A DNA stretch of 64,000 bases. Origin: Escherichia coli (GTDB taxonomy: Bacteria > Pseudomonadota > Gammaproteobacteria > Enterobacterales > Enterobacteriaceae). The notes under the pieces are model-generated. The model was not told the origin of the DNA and ran no database searches. It saw nothing but the letters and a program-made list of their open reading frames with translations. A program made the position numbers and the translations under genes. The stretch lies in the NCBI RefSeq assembly GCF_030013595.1, contig NZ_CP122768.1, one strand, 5' to 3'. Positions 2,441-60,555 of this stretch are shown piece by piece; position 1 is the stretch's first letter; each line of letters begins with the position of its first letter.

Positions 2441-2911
2441 TTAAAAACGCGCTAGATAAGAAAATTTAAGGCTAAGTGTCCCAACGATACCCCCATCACT
2501 AGAATCATCGTCATAATCGGTATTAGAAGCTACTGGAGTGATATCTGAAATTGAGAAGCCCAAATCTTTAAAACGTGGGTTATCCGGCTGAATCTGGATT
2601 ATCTGGCAAATACCCTCATGAATTTTGGTTTCATGAATCTGAGAATACAATTGCATTTCGATAACGCATTCAGCTTGCATTGCATTACCGCCACGGACCC
2701 TATTGTAAGTCTCATTCATTCCGGTGATCCAACAAACCACGTCATCACTAAAGCCTTGCTGAGTTTGTTCTACGTTTAAAGCCAGACCTAAATCTTGTTC
2801 GATAATATCCTGCAAGGCGCGTTTGATTTTCAGTCTAGGCATATTATTAACGGTAGCGAGCATGTGTACCCCCTGCCAGAGTGATAAAGCAATCAGTTGT
2901 ATTGTCACCAT
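2441..2911 (-). CDS. Hypothetical virion morphogenesis/neck protein (156 aa as tracked; more likely ~140 aa from ATG at 2863)
   Basis: ORF track; internal ATG at 2861-2863 has a GGGGG SD, first ATG has none; sits in the head-tail module. Confidence 0.4.
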   Translation of the reverse strand: MVTIQLIALSLWQGVHMLATVNNMPRLKIKRALQDIIEQDLGLALNVEQTQQGFSDDVVCWITGMNETYNRVRGGNAMQAECVIEMQLYSQIHETKIHEGICQIIQIQPDNPRFKDLGFSISDITPVASNTDYDDDSSDGGIVGTLSLKFSYLARF

Positions 2912-9498: not shown

Positions 9499-9732
9499 AT
9501 GACTATGACTACTAAAGCTACTCGCGGTCGCCCTGCCCGTTATACTCGTGAACAGATGGCTGATATTGCCTACGCTTACTATACAGCGGATCGCGGGAAG
9601 GAAGCGAAAGAACAGATTCTTAGTGAACATGGGATTTCAGTAGCCCAATTCTATAAGAATATGAAGAAGTTAGACATTAAATTCTATGTTCAGATCGATG
9701 ACGGTCAGATCGTAGAAGCAACAGGTTTTTGA
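9499..9732 (+). CDS. Small putative DNA-binding protein, 77 aa (paralog of 13446..13628)
   Basis: ORF track; N-terminal RGRPARYTRE motif shared with the second small protein (ARPVKFTRE); own promoter and terminator. Confidence 0.45.
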   Translation: MTMTTKATRGRPARYTREQMADIAYAYYTADRGKEAKEQILSEHGISVAQFYKNMKKLDIKFYVQIDDGQIVEATGF

Positions 9733-9792: not shown

Positions 9793-9835
9793 TCACAATT
9801 TGTGGGAGTCGGGAAACATCCACAATTTGTGGGAG
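9793..9835. repeat. Two direct copies of CACAATTTGTGGGAGT (27-bp period), each with an 11-bp palindromic core CACAA-T-TTGTG
   Basis: Read directly; lies between two convergent terminators. Confidence 0.6.
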
Positions 9836-9844
9836 TTGGATAGT

Positions 9845-11451: not shown

Positions 11452-11784
11452 TTACCAATCGATTTCTACTTGGTCTTCTTCATAATAAGGAATCGCATAT
11501 TCATAACGCCAATTTTCGATGATTTCACGTTCTTCATTAGTAAGAAGGTGATTGTTAACTGGAGTCGCATTGTGATTACCAGCTTCGAATTGCTCGCGAA
11601 CTTCCAGCATTGCATGAATACCAGTTAAGGACATCAGATCAAACGGAACATGCATACTACGGGAGATTGTTTCACGGGATACGCCCCAATCATTTTCTAC
11701 ATGGCTAGGGGTTACAGAAACGGTTTTGCCGGAGATTTTAACAGTCCAGTCATACAGGGATTTAGTGATGGTAAATTCTTTCAT
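11452..11784 (-). CDS. Hypothetical protein, 110 aa
   Basis: ORF track; directly downstream of a consensus promoter. Confidence 0.4.
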   Translation of the reverse strand: MKEFTITKSLYDWTVKISGKTVSVTPSHVENDWGVSRETISRSMHVPFDLMSLTGIHAMLEVREQFEAGNHNATPVNNHLLTNEEREIIENWRYEYAIPYYEEDQVEIDW

Positions 11785-11825
11785 GTTACATCCTCTTTAC
11801 AAATCTAGGTCAAATAGGTTCAAAG

Positions 11826-11883
11826 TTGTCAAGTGCGATAATCATAAAAAAGTTTGAAGATATTGTCAAATACCACTTGACAA
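11826..11883 (-). promoter_or_regulatory. Consensus sigma70 promoter (TTGACA-17-TATGAT, minus strand) bracketed by a 10-bp inverted repeat TTGTCAAGTG / CACTTGACAA
   Basis: -35 at plus 11864-11869, -10 at plus 11841-11846; inverted-repeat arms at 11826-11835 and 11874-11883. Confidence 0.5.
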
Positions 11884-11905
11884 GACACCAAAGGGTTGAC
11901 CTAAC

Positions 11906-12094
11906 TTACAGCATATCTAAGCCTTCATCGTAACCGTAGAAGCCATTCTGAGAAGAGAAGCAGATTGGTGCGTAGTCGTCGTCATCTTCGTCTTGTTCAT
12001 CTTGTTCTGGGGCTTCCTGAGCGGTTTCTTTGCCGTAGTTAAACATGGCTTCATCCAGTTCATAGTGGAAATCCTCTAAAAGAAAGTGAATCAA
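11906..12094 (-). CDS. Small strongly acidic protein (62 aa from TTG; 46 aa from internal ATG); frame uncertain
   Basis: ORF track (TTG start); acidic run EAPEQDEQDEDDDDY; an alternative overlapping frame has the better SD. Confidence 0.25.
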   Translation of the reverse strand: MIHFLLEDFHYELDEAMFNYGKETAQEAPEQDEQDEDDDDYAPICFSSQNGFYGYDEGLDML

Positions 12095-12700
12095 TCTAAT
12101 ATTATTTATAAAGAGAAAATTCTTGTTATTATGAAAGGAGTGATCTGGTAGAGTCCAAAACTGGTCTGTACTTGAAAGGTGATTGGATTCAGTCGGGCAA
12201 AGCCCTCCTTCATGTTTTGATTAAATCATCATCAAAACGAAGAAGTATCTTTAGAATATAAGATCTTTCTTTTGGAGAAATAATAATCAGGAAGCAATTT
12301 GGCAACCGAAGGTTGCAATCCCGAAGGGATAACCAATACCTTTCTAGAAAGTGATTGTTACTCACTTCGTTCGTTTACTAGAATCAGTTATCATCTGGTA
12401 TTAAATCCCTTTCTAAGAAAATCCTTTCAAAAGTGATTCTCGATGCCACGCAGTGGCGTCGCAGACGTTTGGGAGTGAGCGAAGCGAGCGAGCAAACTAG
12501 TTAATTCCTTCTAAGACCATCTAGTATCATCTAGTTTAAATTAGTTGTTACTAGAAGCAATTGGTTGGCGCTTCGCGCAGTCGGGCTAAAGCCCTCCTAA
12601 TTATCTTTTTGGTTATTTGTTGTTTTTAGTTTTACACATGAGCGTAGCGAATGTGTTATATAATATCTATGCACGCCCAATCCCCCGCTTTTTCCCCTCA
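12095..12700. other. ~600 bp hairpin-dense non-coding region (candidate structured RNA or DNA-level origin/packaging signals)
   Basis: No ORF; many short-loop hairpins (GCAACC-GAA-GGTTGC, ATCCC-GAA-GGGAT, GCCAC-GCA-GTGGC, GCGC-TTC-GCGC); CTAG-rich; ~20-bp direct repeats CAGTCGGGC(T)AAAGCCCTCCT at ~12190-12209 and ~12578-12598. Confidence 0.5.
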
Positions 12701-12743
12701 CTAAGTTAATGTTTTATAAAGAGTTTTTCTCACCAATCCTTTT

Positions 12744-12931
12744 CGGGGGCAAATTTCAGGGGCAAAAATTAGATTTTCAGGGGCAAAAATAGTGGGTTTC
12801 AGGGGCAAAAATGAGGGGCAAAATCACTGTTTCCCAGAATTTCAGGGGCAAAAATAGTGGGTTTCAGGGGCAAAAATGGGATGTGGAATCTAGGGGATTT
12901 TGGTTCAGGGGCAAAATTCAGGGGCAATTTT
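12744..12931 (+). repeat. Iteron array: 9 copies of (TTCA)GGGGCAAAAAT, including an exact 38-bp duplication
   Basis: Read directly; copies at ~12746, 12759, 12780, 12802, 12815, 12845, 12867, 12908, 12921; 38-mer TTCAGGGGCAAAAATAGTGGGTTTCAGGGGCAAAAATG at 12777 and 12841. Confidence 0.85.
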
Positions 12932-12968
12932 CATAGTGTAGGGCTAGTGTAGGTTTGAAAATCCTTTG

Positions 12969-13025
12969 TTGACACTGTGTAGGATCGGTGGTATACTTGA
13001 AAATTCGAGATAAATATGTTATAAT
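12969..13025 (+). promoter_or_regulatory. Tandem near-consensus sigma70 promoters next to the iterons
   Basis: P1 TTGACA (12969-12974), 17 bp, TATACT (12992-12997); P2 TTGAAA (12997-13002), 17 bp, TGtTATAAT (13017-13025). Confidence 0.55.
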
Positions 13026-13171
13026 ATTTGTATTGAAAGTGAAAATTTACCGATTTTCCTTCCTATTGTTATCACCGTGTTAAATTGTTATATGTCTGTG
13101 AAGATTTGGATCTGAGAGAAAATCTTGTAACAAATCTTTACAATTCATAGCTCAATTAATGCTCACCGCTT

Positions 13172-13310
13172 TAGCAAAAAGTGCTATGCCTTTTTCTAAA
13201 TTGATTGAATATACATCAATTTGGTTAAATCGTGTTCTTCGCTTTAGCAATTCGTGCTGTGGTTTAACACATTTAACACGTCTGATAACATCTGAATAAC
13301 ATTTTAACAT
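13172..13310 (+). promoter_or_regulatory. Operator-like palindromes and phased TAACAY repeats upstream of the 60-aa gene
   Basis: TAGCAaaaagTGCTA (13172-13186) and TAGCAattcgTGCTg (13245-13259); five TAACAC/TAACAT copies at ~10-11 bp spacing in 13264-13310. Confidence 0.45.
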
Positions 13311-13445
13311 ATCTCTGTTATAAATACATATATAAGAGATAAATGTGAGGGGTTGAAAAATAAAATACAATCCCATATAAATAATAGTGAGCGGTTAACG
13401 CTCTTTTTTAAGAAATCATTAATCCACATTGTAGGAGGATTCGAG

Positions 13446-13628
13446 ATGGCACGACCTGTTAAGTTCACTCGCGAAATCATCTTAGAAATGGCTAAACGCT
13501 ACTTTGAGTTAACGCCGGGTGTGAGAATTGAAGAGTGGTTTAAAAATGAGGGCATCGATAAATCAACCTTTCATAAACTGCTAAAACGATATGACATTAA
13601 AGTGAAGATTGAAGCTACCGTTTGGTAA
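13446..13628 (+). CDS. Small putative DNA-binding protein, 60 aa (paralog of 9499..9732)
   Basis: ATG with AGGAGGA SD inside tracked ORF 13353..13628 (which begins at TTG); MARPVKFTRE motif. Confidence 0.5.
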   Translation: MARPVKFTREIILEMAKRYFELTPGVRIEEWFKNEGIDKSTFHKLLKRYDIKVKIEATVW

Positions 13629-13742
13629 TCAACTTTGACTGAGAATTATATGATGGCTTTAAAAAAGAAAAAGCCTCCTTTGCTGCAACAAGGGAGGCTT
13701 GAAATGAACAATTAAAACTAACTTTCCATAGGAGTATTTATA

Positions 13743-14684
13743 ATGTTATTTTCCGCTAACTTTTTCACTAACGAAGTAACCAACGCTAAAGCAGTTATCA
13801 AATTTGGCACCGAAGCAAACAAGAAGATTCAGCCGAAAGTTGTTGCTCATGTTTCCTTTGCGCAGCAGAAATCCGCTTTCGCTGGCTTTAAAGCACATCG
13901 TGAAGCACTGATCGCGGCTGGCTTTGGTGTTGACGGTAAACTGCCTAACGGCATTCGTAAAGCAATCGACCGCGTTAAACCAGTTAAAGACGTTGCAGTA
14001 GACCACATCGTTACTTTTACCGTTAAGAACTCTTCTGAACTGTTCCACCTGGTTATTGCTGGTGATACTGCTATCGTTTCCGCTCCTAACATGGATTTTC
14101 AGGATACCGCTGATTGCCAGATCACCTTCGGTCGTCGTAAAGAAGTTACCGGAAAAGCTAAACTGAACTTCACTAAATCCGGCAATCCTTACTTTGCTGT
14201 ATTCTTTAACAGCCACGCTACCGAAAAAGAAGTTGTAGAACTGGTTGCTTATGAAGGTGAAGAGAAAGAACGTATTGAATCTTGCGAAGCATTTCTGGAA
14301 CTGGAAGCACAGGTGAATGCTGTTTCTCCGGTTGTTGAAGATCGCTTTGCTGCACTGGAAGCACAGATCGCAGAACTGAAAGCTGCACTGGAAGAAAAAG
14401 ACCAGATTATCGAAGCACAGAAAGCTGAGATTGAAGAACTGAAAGCTAAAGAAGTTGCTCCGGTGGCAGTAGTTGAAAACGCGGCTGATGAGGCCGCAAA
14501 TGATGAAGTAGAAGTGAAAATCGATGTGATGCGTGATCCGATGGCTGCACTGCAATTACTTCGTTCTTTTAAGGGCAAATCTCATTTTTCTAGTGATGTA
14601 GAAGATGAGGAAGAAGAACAGAAACGCAATGCTGCAATGCTTCATGATGAAATGTACGGTACTAACTTTTCTTACTGCCAATAA
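13743..14684 (+). CDS. Hypothetical protein, 313 aa: unrecognised N-terminal domain, coiled-coil, acidic C-terminal tail
   Basis: ORF track; AGGAG SD; heptad-like ALEAQIAELKAALEEKDQIIEAQKAEIEELKAKE; no NTPase or nuclease motif seen. Confidence 0.5.
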   Translation: MLFSANFFTNEVTNAKAVIKFGTEANKKIQPKVVAHVSFAQQKSAFAGFKAHREALIAAGFGVDGKLPNGIRKAIDRVKPVKDVAVDHIVTFTVKNSSELFHLVIAGDTAIVSAPNMDFQDTADCQITFGRRKEVTGKAKLNFTKSGNPYFAVFFNSHATEKEVVELVAYEGEEKERIESCEAFLELEAQVNAVSPVVEDRFAALEAQIAELKAALEEKDQIIEAQKAEIEELKAKEVAPVAVVENAADEAANDEVEVKIDVMRDPMAALQLLRSFKGKSHFSSDVEDEEEEQKRNAAMLHDEMYGTNFSYCQ

Positions 14685-15298: not shown

Positions 15299-15345
15299 TA
15301 GACGTTGACCATCAACATCTTTCATACATTTATTTATAACGCGTT

Positions 15346-15903: not shown

Positions 15904-16350
15904 TGGTTATCCTCCATTAAATTTGCGTAATTTTATTTATTGGTTTTACGCAAAATCTAAGCGCCTAAATCGCATTCTAACGAAGGGAAAGATCCAGTAA
16001 TGGTAAGGGCTAGGAAGTGGGTTAATAGTCGCGTAGCGACCGCGCTAGGACTGCACTGATCACGTTTTAAAATCTCACACGCACATCAAAAACCGGGGTG
16101 CCGAAAACTCGCTTTATCTGACCCCGATCCAGAACCTAAATCATTTGTCAAGTCTTTCCGATTCAGTAAAGGGGAACATGCATCTAAGCTAGAGAAGCTC
16201 ATAAAGACTAAGTATGAATGCGGTGTTGTTAGTCGGGATGATATGCGAGACGGTTACACTGAAACGCTACCATTTGAAGCATTGCCGGAGATCATCACTA
16301 TCACCAACAAAATGATAAGCGAAAGCATCCTCGTAAGTAATTGATTCCTA

Positions 16351-32015: not shown

Positions 32016-32355
32016 TACCGTTGTCTCTCGTCCAGGTTTACTCCTGATAGAAAGTCATCGGCACTTGACGGTAATTACTTATGACCAAAAACCTCTTTGC
32101 GTCACATTTTTACAACAATTATGGCAGAGAAAATTAATGCTATTGGAATGAAGAGAGTAACGAATGGCTAAACTGGCTAACCCGAATGACGAAAAATTCT
32201 GGAAAACAGCACGCAATTTCGTCAGGTGATTATTTTCGTCCCTAAGGAAACCACATAGGATGCTCACGGGTGCCTGAGACTTTCTGTTTTCAGGCTAACC
32301 GGGAATCAGAAAGACGAAGGCCCCGACCGATATTTCTATCAACCGAGGCCAACGA

Positions 32356-32563
<208 letters not shown>

Positions 32564-32787: not shown

Positions 32788-33042
32788 GATGTTTTCATAT
32801 AACCTCCATGGTTTATCGAATCTTATGTTCGATTTGAACGTTATACGCTGGTTTATTTTGATACCGTTGATGAGATCAAAGATCGGGTGAATTGATTAAA
32901 GATAAGCCAGATGGACGTATGGATAAGGATTATGGTTTTATTTGTCATACAAATAAATATAATAGGCGCTTCCGATGTAGACCCGTATTCTTCGCCTGTA
33001 CCACGGGTCGGTTTTAGTACAGGCGTTTTCTTTAAATATCCT

Positions 33043-49353: not shown

Positions 49354-50062
49354 AGAATAAATATCCTCCGGCATAGCCGGAGGTTTTTCAAATGCGCCTG
49401 TAAGGCTCTGTTACCAGCCGCGCCCTAACAGGCGCATACGATCTGACATTTGCATTCAACTTCGTTACTTACGGCCCGTAAACGGGCTGCCCGGATATGG
49501 AATCGATAACTGCTCCCCCATTTTATCCTCTTCAAGCTGGTGCTTTATGTAGTCCTGTATCTTCGCCGTGTTCTTACCCACCGTATCGACATAGTACCCT
49601 CGGCACCAGAACTCCCTGTTTCTGTATTTGAATTTCAAATCCCCAAACTGCTCGTAAAGCATCAGACTGCTTTTCCCTTTCAGATATCCCATAAAGCCGG
49701 ATACGCTCATTTTGGGTGGGATTTCCACAAGCATATGGATATGATCTGCGCAGCACTCTGCTTCCAGAATCCGTACGCTTTTCCACTCACACAGCTTTCT
49801 CAAAATACTGCCTATCGCCCTACGCTTCTCTCCGTAAAACGCCAGTCTTCGGTATTTCGGCGCAAAAACTATGTGATATTTACAGTTCCAGCGGGTGTGC
49901 GCTAAGCTCTTTTCGTCCCCCATTGGGACCCCCTTTTGATTTCTTGTTTGACACTTGCAGTTGCCAGACCGCAAGGTGTTTTAACAAATCAAAAGGGGTT
50001 TTAATAACTGGCTCAAAGCTGAAAGCTTTCCGGAACCCCCAGCCTAGCTGGGGGTTTTCTGT
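49354..50062 (-). mobile_element. IS200 (IS200/IS605 family), ~709 bp; boundaries approximate
   Basis: Contains tnpA; LE perfect hairpin AACCCCCAGC-CTA-GCTGGGGGTT at 50034-50056; RE hairpin CCTCCGGCATAGCCGGAGG at ~49365-49383. Confidence 0.8.
49465..49923 (-). CDS. tnpA: IS200 transposase TnpA (Y1/HUH), 152 aa
   Basis: MGDEKSLAHTRWNCKYHIVFAPKYRR.. with HxH motif (ADHIHMLVEIPP); inside tracked ORF 49465..49974. Confidence 0.85.
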   Translation of the reverse strand: MGDEKSLAHTRWNCKYHIVFAPKYRRLAFYGEKRRAIGSILRKLCEWKSVRILEAECCADHIHMLVEIPPKMSVSGFMGYLKGKSSLMLYEQFGDLKFKYRNREFWCRGYYVDTVGKNTAKIQDYIKHQLEEDKMGEQLSIPYPGSPFTGRK

Positions 50063-60195: not shown

Positions 60196-60223
60196 ATGCT
60201 CTGGATAAGAATTATCCAATTCT

Positions 60224-60328
60224 AAAAAAAAGCCCGAACGACTGTTCGGGCTTGTCTCATTATTTGTTGGATAAACAGTAACAAGGGTCCAACAGAAAAT
60301 AATCTTTGTGACAATAAAGGCATATAAC
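60224..60328 (-). ncRNA. micC: MicC small RNA
   Basis: Minus-sense GTTATATGCCTTTATTGTCACA.. 5' end and hairpin plus U-tract terminator; between ydbK and ompN as in K-12. Confidence 0.7.
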
Positions 60329-60555
60329 CCGCGAAGAATAACGTATAGCAAATTAAAAGTATAATTTTTATTTTGTATGTATTATCTTCGATACATTCAC
60401 CAGACTTATTATCATTTCAGAAGAATTATTTGATTAAGGTTTTACTTAAGGCGTAACAAATGATATTTATCGGCTAACTGAACTTCTCCTTTAGGATGTT
60501 TTCACTCCCCGAAATGGGGATAAAAGGCAAATAAAATAACTAAAGGATTTATTCA

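Follow-up and report, generated by a model that had tools for sequence, protein, structure and literature searches.

Hairpins that close a three-base G-N-A loop are specially stable in DNA and not in RNA, where hairpins under selection usually carry UUCG or GNRA tetraloops. Masai and Arai are said to have described, in 1989, an origin of plasmid R1 (oriR) with a G4-type single-strand initiation (ssi) site downstream of it. RB49-like phages are not known to modify the cytosine of their DNA, and we know of no RB49 replication origin that has been mapped. The DNA mini-hairpin motif is found at the origin of phage G4, where it is the primase site, in ssiA of plasmid RSF1010, and in the hairpin promoters of phage N4 (PMC13037366). 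The origins of phage T4 lie in late regions and at strand switches (PMC3016281); in RB49, MotA is absent and no middle promoters are known (PMC1524935). Here we describe positions 12095-12700 of a 64,000-nucleotide stretch of an Escherichia coli chromosome (the window; contig NZ_CP122768.1), a hairpin-dense region within an integrated prophage. We tentatively read it as the DNA-level, origin-proximal part of a modular, iteron-type prophage replicon in which hairpins formed by single-stranded DNA would mark priming or strand opening, a reading that we hold to be possible, if short of probable.

Hairpins beside an iteron array

The region sits in a 1.3-kb gap with divergent operons on either side. 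Leftward, on the minus strand, are geneX, p110, Rha/Ant, and the terminase and head genes; rightward, on the plus strand, are a 60-aa helix-turn-helix (HTH) protein, HTH60 (13446-13628), and an ORFan, p313 (13743-14684). A sequence-only reading of the window had called the region non-coding and unusually dense in hairpins, and both statements stand. The longest open reading frames (ORFs) span 45 aa (12299-12436, plus strand, TTG start) and 51 aa (12210-12365, minus strand, GTG start), and in 16 relatives both are interrupted, either by stop codons or by indels that shift the frame. Counting as perfect any hairpin with a stem of at least 4 bp and a loop of 3-5 nt, there are 11, against 3.0 ± 1.9 in 1000 dinucleotide shuffles (P=0.002). 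Nearly every one belongs to a single class, with a three-base G-N-A loop and a C:G closing pair (C-GNA-G), which is the DNA 'mini-hairpin' motif. Triloop hairpins of this class number four on the top strand and one on the bottom strand, where shuffles lead one to expect 0.02 and 0.005, respectively, and the region thus holds 5 of the 10 in the whole window (about 0.03 expected). Two extra minimal heptamers, GCGAAGC (12479-12485) and GCGTAGC (12642-12648), have stems of only 2-3 bp. Folded whole, the region gives z = -4.6 as minus-strand RNA, -3.2 as plus-strand RNA and -2.8 as plus-strand DNA.

The loop class, being the type that is stable in DNA, is the decisive clue for a reading at the level of DNA, and the 2-3 bp stems, the presence of GNA loops on both strands and the lack of T-runs argue for single-stranded DNA rather than RNA. 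Rightward from the hairpins come an 80%-AT stretch, nine phased direct iterons, promoters and genes, an order that is classic for iteron replicons and that we read accordingly. The locus has a phased array of same-orientation repeats (GGGGCAA, 12746-12927, all on one strand) with an adjoining AT-rich region, and, as at ssi sites, stable single-stranded DNA hairpins on both strands, five with stems of at least 4 bp plus the two heptamers. The AT-rich DNA at 12599-12739 is, on its composition, a candidate DNA-unwinding region. Of the priming or packaging signals that the sequence-only reading had put forward, priming is favoured by this pairing of C-GNA-G hairpins on both strands with the AT-rich stretch and iterons, and packaging is the less likely.

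The mechanism that we propose is the one by which the ssi sites beside the RSF1010 iterons and the G4-type site beside R1 oriR work. In it, p313 and/or HTH60 would bind the nine iterons (12740-12930) and open the AT-rich stretch (12599-12739), and strand separation would proceed leftward, possibly aided by rightward transcription from TAGAAT at 12252 and 12379. The exposed single strands would snap into C-GNA-G mini-hairpins, on the top strand at 12302-12485 and on the bottom strand at 12568-12578, and in most relatives also into a bottom-strand GTA-loop form of the hairpin at 12583-12594. These hairpins might hold the strands apart, or might act as ssi signals for the host primase or primosome, with synthesis running outwards on each strand, leftward from the top-strand hairpins and rightward from those of the bottom strand. 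That replication starts here, that p313/HTH60 binds the iterons and that priming takes place at the hairpins we infer, in each case, from the DNA sequence.

Other features noted earlier held up in whole or in part. The direct repeats at the two ends, CAGTCGGGCAAAGCCCTCCT (12190-12209) and CAGTCGGGCTAAAGCCCTCCT (12578-12598), agree at 20 of 21 positions with one indel and lie 388 nt apart; the exact 11-mer within them, taken alone, has P=0.03 in shuffles. Repeated CTAG-centred palindromes had also been reported, and CTAG is indeed dense, at 6 in 606 nt (9.9 per kb, against 2.3 in the remainder of the prophage and 0.2 in host DNA, a 40-fold excess over the latter); TTTCTAGAAA itself occurs a single time (12340-12349), the other sites being related but non-identical.

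Relatives and the exchange of iteron types

Of 5,426 complete E. coli genomes, 57 have a match to an 801-nt query (12000-12800), as do many proviruses in IMG/VR and some contigs from metagenomes. The left half of the region (about 12176-12420) is 92-96% identical in every relative, whatever its neighbours, and it stays so even beside a Rha gene that can be matched over just 14-46% of its length, at about 71-74% nucleotide identity, and beside geneX proteins that are 54-64% identical. Such constancy beside a diverged Rha suggests that the left half behaves as a cis site under constraint. The right half (12421-12700) is present in nine of nine loci that have GGGGCAA iterons and p313, and in none of six loci of other types, in which the right half, the iterons, the HTH protein and the N-terminal domain of the p313-family protein are exchanged together. 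The iterons of these other types are GTGTAGG; CGGGGA; and GTACATC together with CCGGGGA. Four iteron types are thereby paired with four N-terminal variants of the p313 family plus HTH60, and types with two iteron families carry two p313 paralogues, in tandem in some elements.

The N-terminal domain of p313 is beta-rich and variable, and is followed by a coiled coil and an acidic tail; the coiled coil and the acidic C-terminal region are retained in all p313 types. A C-terminal peptide, LHD-x-x-Y-x-TN-F/Y-S, is common to types 1 and 2, while types 3-4 end differently. The family is an ORFan group: a set of 1.8 billion representative proteins contains just 11 relatives. One p313 protein cluster is found on at least 1,000 contigs. 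Searches with p313 for a known family, fold or defence system gave no match.

Hairpin sequences turn over within this framework while their class is kept. One relative position is occupied by three different sequences, GCCAC-GCA-GTGGC, ACGCC-GTA-GGCGT and CCC-GCA-GGG, all of them C-GNA-G hairpins, and almost all triloops in the window and 34 relatives are of that kind, with GAA, GAA, GCA, GCA and GTA on the top strand and GAA, GTA and GTA on the bottom. The middle base of the loop drifts (GAA<->GCA, TTC<->TAC), as in relatives where the hairpins at 12302-12330 have GCA in place of GAA, and what stays constant is the closing C:G pair and the outer G and A of the loop. In the left direct repeat, relatives have GGC-TTC-GCC, GGGC-ATA-GCCC or GGGC-TAAA-GCCC as the interior, with unchanged flanks, and in the window the hairpin at 12583-12594 of the right repeat has a TAAA loop. 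The order is constant: several top-strand GNA hairpins, two bottom-strand GNA hairpins, the AT-rich stretch and nine iterons. The region is real, and it is conserved in a way that indicates function.

One relative, L036, is a deletion variant that has lost 12139-12348 between GAAAG(G)TGATTG repeats. The metagenomic contigs end at six different positions, two of them at about 12412-12448 and the others scattered as far as 12962, a scatter that rules out the contig ends as physical termini.

Several points weigh against an origin at this locus. The cumulative GC skew has its minimum at about 11.7-12.0 kb, near the region, and this coincides with the switch in gene orientation and is therefore confounded. 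No DnaA box (TTATCCACA, at most one mismatch) occurs in 12095-12950, the nearest being at 13420; a distant blastn search of PLSDB plasmids with 12095-13450 gave no match; and p313 resembles no Rep protein. The iterons could also serve as operators, as a centromere or as a packaging site, and linkage in one recombination module, rather than direct interaction, could account for the way in which hairpins, iterons and protein vary together. L036 lacks module A, described below, along with both GAA hairpins, so that either this part is dispensable or the L036 prophage is defective.

A module common to the prophage and RB49-like phages

Positions 12212-12292, here called module A, share 76-80% identity with non-coding DNA from RB49-like T4-type phages (Krischvirus). 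RB49 has four copies per genome, which occupy three loci (Table 1), all in late-gene regions and two at strand-switch points. Each RB49 copy comprises a 7-bp hairpin, the core CAAAACGAAGA then ATCTTTAGAAT, some 35-45 nt of AT-rich DNA, and GC-rich GNA mini-hairpins, and the prophage module has the same layout (12217-12330) with mini-hairpins in the matching position. The mini-hairpins of the RB49 copies, two in three copies and one in the fourth, are unrelated in sequence, and 6 of the 22 C-GNA-G hairpins of the whole RB49 genome are at these four copies. Comparison of the copies shows a single compensatory change (A-T<->G-C) in the stem of the module A hairpin, whose T.G wobbles are confined to the given (plus) strand, and TAGAAT is kept in 15 of 15 prophage copies shown and in three of four RB49 copies. 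An RNA terminator (a C-UUCG-G tetraloop with a T-run) stands in the same RB49 intergenic region, some tens of bases away from GNA hairpins that have no T-run, a juxtaposition that points to two distinct kinds of hairpin.

In IMG/VR and metagenomes the module A core was found, among the matches listed, in Krischvirus and this prophage family only; a search of one genome per species gave no match, and a search of Rfam with the RB49 copies likewise none. The remainder of the region has no further similarity to RB49. A second, partial copy of the RB49 module was suspected by eye in 12341-12720 and discarded, since local alignment scores fell within the shuffle range, and geneX and p313 proved unrelated to the RB49 DprA-like ORF164c.

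Coding sequences are shared as well. The prophage tail fibre is 71-75% identical to the RB49 distal long tail fibre gp37 (75% over 915 aa), at the right end an accessory gene of the LprI family reaches 60-98% identity to RB49 ORF260c (98% over 101 aa), and the left prophage end has homologues of ORF190c and ORF194c along with a gp38-like fragment also in common with RB49. These identities indicate that the temperate prophage and the T4-type virulent phage have exchanged genes repeatedly. In addition, TATAAATA, the T4 late-promoter consensus, occurs 6 times in the 64-kb window against 2.1 expected, and 5 of these lie within 12.1-15.4 kb, in the prophage. Four copies precede geneX, HTH60 and p94 by 40-120 nt, in the correct orientation, and the one at 13376 is kept in all four module types, with a hairpin and T-run next to it.

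It is tempting to speculate that module A with its GNA mini-hairpins is a Krischvirus cis-element for replication origin or late activation, and that the prophage copy lets an infecting RB49-like phage replicate and/or switch on the prophage. Piracy or eavesdropping of this sort would fit both the enrichment of TATAAATA and the exchange of genes with RB49; we nevertheless think it improbable. Our searches found no literature on this prophage or on the RB49 intergenic repeats.

The prophage itself is about 35 kb long and is inserted in hicB, its right part taking up position 1 to about 16,300 of the window, which is otherwise enterobacterial chromosome; the tehAB-ydcK-rimL genes follow it, and Rfam identifies on the host side, at gathering score, the small RNAs sok (32268-32419), RydC (32969-33032), STnc490 (49933-50056) and MicC (60216-60331). 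The complete element, as seen in E. coli PI7, extends from a gene for a large serine recombinase, by way of genes for lysis, tail, tail fibre, capsid, portal and a gpA-type terminase, to a TerS-like gene. Integrase, lysis, tail, head and terminase genes are thus present, and no replication genes are annotated or recognisable in the prophage. The large terminase (TerL) of the closest cultured phage is only 44% identical, and the TerS-like gene, 2.6 kb rightward of the hairpin region, matches phrog_57 (E=2.7e-11). In relatives geneX encodes 155 aa and is intact; in the window it has an internal deletion or frameshift, and the acidic 62-aa ORF at 11906-12094 is its C-terminal remnant. Given this damage, the present prophage copy may be partly decayed.

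The remaining features of the locus are collected in Table 1. The terminator-like hairpin at 13389-13403 suggests a rightward leader or attenuated transcript of about 380 nt. Elsewhere in the prophage, CACAATTTGTGGGAGT(C/T)GG occurs twice as a direct repeat at 9795-9842, and both copies contain a palindrome. The pair, flanked on one side by p77 (9499-9732), a small HTH gene paralogous to HTH60, and on the other by the p183/TerL genes, is on its sequence a candidate site for protein binding or packaging. A further C-GTA-G mini-hairpin, GTCGC-GTA-GCGAC, is found at 16028-16040, between the TerS-like gene and the right prophage end at hicB. ARAGORN calls a 91-nt tRNA-Gln(ttg) at 2586-2676 (plus strand) among the prophage tail genes, where the minus strand has an ORF of 156 aa; a tRNA of this length is unusual, and the call may be spurious.

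Table 1. Positions of features at the hairpin locus, with related loci and RB49 counterparts. Coordinates are those of the window unless another sequence is named.
Feature	Position	Strand	Details
Left boundary	12103..12115	-	TATAAATA at 12103-12110, ~40 nt upstream of geneX start codon
Left-boundary 11-mer TTTATAAAGAG	overlaps TATAAATA; recurs at 12713-12723		recurrence is on right boundary; left boundary kept in both left-flank variants
Left direct-repeat copy (hairpin motif)	12190..12209	+	CAGTCG-(GGGC AAA GCCC)-TCCT
Module A	12212..12292	+	hairpin 1, core and AT-rich spacer; common to Krischvirus, with 4 copies per genome there
Module A hairpin 1	12217-12235	+	stem TTGATTA/TCATCAA, loop AATCA
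Module A invariant core	12233-12243, then 12247-12257	+	CAAAACGAAGA, then ATCTTTAGAAT; TAGAAT at 12252-12257 within
Mini-hairpins	12302..12330	+ (top strand)	GCAACC-GAA-GGTTGC (12302-12316); ATCCC-GAA-GGGAT (12318-12330)
End of conserved left half	12340..12420	+	TTTCTAGAAA palindrome 12340-12349; AAAGTGATT repeat 12347-12355; dyad AAGTGA-N7-TCACTT
Weak promoter-like site	12355 to 12384	+	TTGTTA at 12355, 18-nt spacer, TAGAAT ending 12384
Type-specific right half	12421..12600	+	top-strand GCCAC-GCA-GTGGC (12445-12457), CGTC-GCA-GACG (12457-12467), GCGAAGC (12479-12485)
CTAG cluster	12497-12554		in right half
Mini-hairpin GCGC-TTC-GCGC	12568-12578	bottom strand	
Right direct-repeat copy	12578-12598		hairpin in most relatives GGGC-TAC-GCCC, equal to a bottom-strand GTA loop
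AT-rich stretch	12599..12739		80% A+T at 12600-12639
Hairpin CACAT-(GAGCGTAGCGA)-ATGTG	12635-12655		includes minimal GCGTAGC, 12642-12648
Nine same-orientation iterons (TTT)CAGGGGCAAAA	12740..12930	+	spacing 13 or 21-22 nt
GTGTAGG sites (n=3)	12936..13445	+	one within a promoter spacer
Strong sigma-70-like promoters	12969-12997; 12997-13025	+	11 of 12 matches each
AT-rich leader	12936..13445	+	TATAAATA at 13319 and 13376
Terminator-like hairpin GAGCGGTTAACGCTC, then T6	13389-13403		between strong plus-strand promoters and HTH60 start
HTH60; p313	13446-13628; 13743-14684	+	candidate iteron-binding or initiator module
TATAAATA copies	12103-12110; 13319-13326; 13376-13383; 13735-13742; 15331-15338	-; +; +; -; -	
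p313-family loci	13743-14684; L005 9149-10150; L059 5326-7368; L117 7221-9455		
Tail fibre	1-1520; L001 708-4310; RB49 151717-154656	- (window)	
RB49 module A, two copies			between ORF165c and DprA-like ORF164c
RB49 module A copy			between gene 3 and divergent ORF130w
RB49 module A copy			between gene 35 terminator and gene 36 late promoter

Alternative explanations and known systems

The hairpins might alternatively act in RNA, an explanation that we find doubtful. The region would then be transcribed, and its hairpins would serve RNA stability, processing or antitermination, either in a rightward non-coding RNA starting from module A (TAGAAT at 12252) or from the site ending at 12384 and reaching to near the right repeat and a T-rich run, or in a long leftward 5' leader of the geneX-Rha-terminase operon from the promoter-like CTCTTTATAAAAC near 12713. 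Both strands do fold better than shuffles as RNA (z = -4.6 and -3.2), hairpin 1 shows compensation at one stem pair and has T.G wobbles confined to the plus strand, and TAGAAT is conserved across the prophage copies shown and three of the four RB49 copies; moreover, the plus strand is moderately T-rich after both direct-repeat hairpins, and a paralogue of the sequence upstream of geneX, CTCTTTATAAA, faces left at the right border. That the region is the 5' leader of the minus-strand operon, as located by the sequence-only reading, is an assumption, and the promoter which that reading placed near 12650 does not appear in our scan, which shows no sigma-70-like minus-strand promoter there and no convincing one right of the hairpins. 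The best sigma-70 matches in 12095-12700 reach only 9 of 12, none of them in module A, and sigma-70, sigma-54, FNR, IHF and CRP sites, tried by eye on module A and the AAAGTGAT repeats, were set aside because spacings or half-sites misfit. The scan for intrinsic terminators likewise finds none in 12095-12700, its only site being the one at 13389-13403. A comparison with Rfam 15, which had been proposed as a check on a regulatory or antitoxin-like RNA, yields no gathering-score match and no described family; even at E<=10 the sole match in 12095-12700 is snR77 (E=6.8), one of four chance-level matches (E>=1.2) across 11700-13400, and no toxin or defence gene was found near the region. The loops, too, are GNA triloops on both strands and not GNRA or UUCG tetraloops, two conserved elements have stems of 2-3 bp only, and the RB49 element lies between a terminator and a late promoter and is thus probably poorly transcribed.

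DNA-binding proteins offer a further explanation, one we consider unlikely, in which the region is a transcriptional switchboard and recombination junction: AAAGTGAT repeats, CTAG sites and dyads would be protein sites in promoter or insulator cassettes for the divergent operons, the conserved blocks would be mainly crossover points for mosaic exchange, much as in the PeSL regulatory cassettes of T4-type phages, and the hairpins would be insulators or incidental. The same-orientation repeats (A/G)GTGAT (four copies, two of them exact AAGTGAT), the six CTAG sites and two copies of GAAGCAATT fit this picture, as do the two of six metagenomic contig breaks at the boundary between conserved and type-specific DNA (about 12412-12448), the L036 deletion between short repeats and the exchange with RB49 of the gp37 tail fibre and ORF260c; PeSLs are, besides, documented recombination cassettes in RB49 and phi1 (PMC2839356). 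Yet the hallmarks of PeSLs are missing here (a sigma-70 -35/-10, a polyG/polyC stem, and an ORF with a Shine-Dalgarno sequence directly downstream), and the C-GNA-G loop class and its upkeep through sequence turnover are left unexplained. A DNA-packaging site (cos or pac), at which a small terminase-like protein binds the repeats and the hairpins assist assembly or cutting, seems to us very improbable, even though the large terminase is of the lambda gpA type, a TerS-like gene lies 2.6 kb rightward, direct-repeat arrays are typical of cosB and pac, and the architecture of p313 (DNA-binding end, coiled coil, C-terminal tail) would also suit a small terminase. Identity of the TerS-like protein stays at 81-92% whichever iteron type is present, and the TerL variants do not follow iteron type either; contig ends fall at six positions with no single terminus; and the CACAATTTGTGGGAGT(C/T)GG pair is much nearer TerL. 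We give next to no credence to a miniature inserted element with the ~20-bp direct repeats as its ends, as had been suggested from their 20/21-nt agreement at a distance of 388 nt. Terminal inverted repeats are lacking, the right repeat swaps with the whole right half and the iterons in other types, and among about 50 related loci there is no empty site between the repeats, the sole deletion (L036) having other end points. The repeats are better described as two copies of a hairpin motif, CAGTCG-(hairpin)-TCCT, with a varying interior.

If the reading as an origin-proximal element is correct, it gives a common but unstudied family of E. coli prophages, in which no replication genes can be recognised, both a defined replication and control region and an ORFan, modular, specificity-swapping candidate initiator. 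It would also constitute a natural, repeated use of an extraordinarily stable DNA mini-hairpin, selected while its stems turn over, a role that is poorly documented. The ~80-nt module common to the prophage and Krischvirus is a candidate for the origins or middle-mode control elements of RB49-like phages, and its sharing points to direct genetic traffic, possibly with functional cross-talk, between two phages, one temperate and one virulent, that share a host.

Set beside described systems, the region recalls the virion-RNA-polymerase promoters of phage N4, hairpins with a 5-7 bp stem and a 3-nt loop (GAA or GGA) that form in DNA; no gene for an N4-type RNA polymerase is found in the annotated prophage or in RB49. 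The PeSL cassettes of RB49 and phi1 are likewise repeated intergenic stem-loop modules subject to mosaic exchange, in the same phage genus. Unlike module A and its hairpins, they carry consensus sigma-70 promoters, an upstream AT-rich element and polyG/polyC terminator stems, and abut a start codon; module A has no sigma-70 consensus, and its GNA stems are of mixed sequence, without T-runs or an adjacent start codon, so that we do not count it among the PeSLs. In T4, oriF and oriG consist of a promoter with a downstream unwinding element and are primed by an R-loop, and oriE has iterons. Module A lacks a -35 element and a Mot box, unlike these origins, but its -10-like TAGAAT followed by some 35-45 nt of AT-rich DNA recalls oriF and oriG, and the RB49 copies match T4 origins in where they lie, a likeness that is positional and architectural only.

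Closer parallels are found among origins that use hairpins. The complementary-strand origins of phages G4, St-1 and alpha3 have primase-recognised hairpins with GCGAAAGC or GCGTTAGC; their genomes are single-stranded and their loops GNNA tetraloop variants, whereas the region is double-stranded DNA with GNA triloops, and common to both are clustered, extraordinarily stable DNA mini-hairpins where single-stranded DNA would be exposed. From the origins of RSF1010 and R1 the region differs in having no homologue of RepA/B/C or a primase, in having 8-10 hairpins instead of 2, in showing no similarity beyond the mini-hairpin motif, and in belonging to an integrated prophage, not a plasmid, with a function read from sequence. 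With both it has in common that the strand polarity of the hairpins switches inside it. As in RSF1010 oriV, with its iterons, AT-rich region and ssiA/ssiB, a repeat array adjoins an AT stretch and GC-rich hairpins on opposite strands, and the ssiA heptamer itself, CCGAAGG (PMC13037366), recurs at 12306-12312 of the region.

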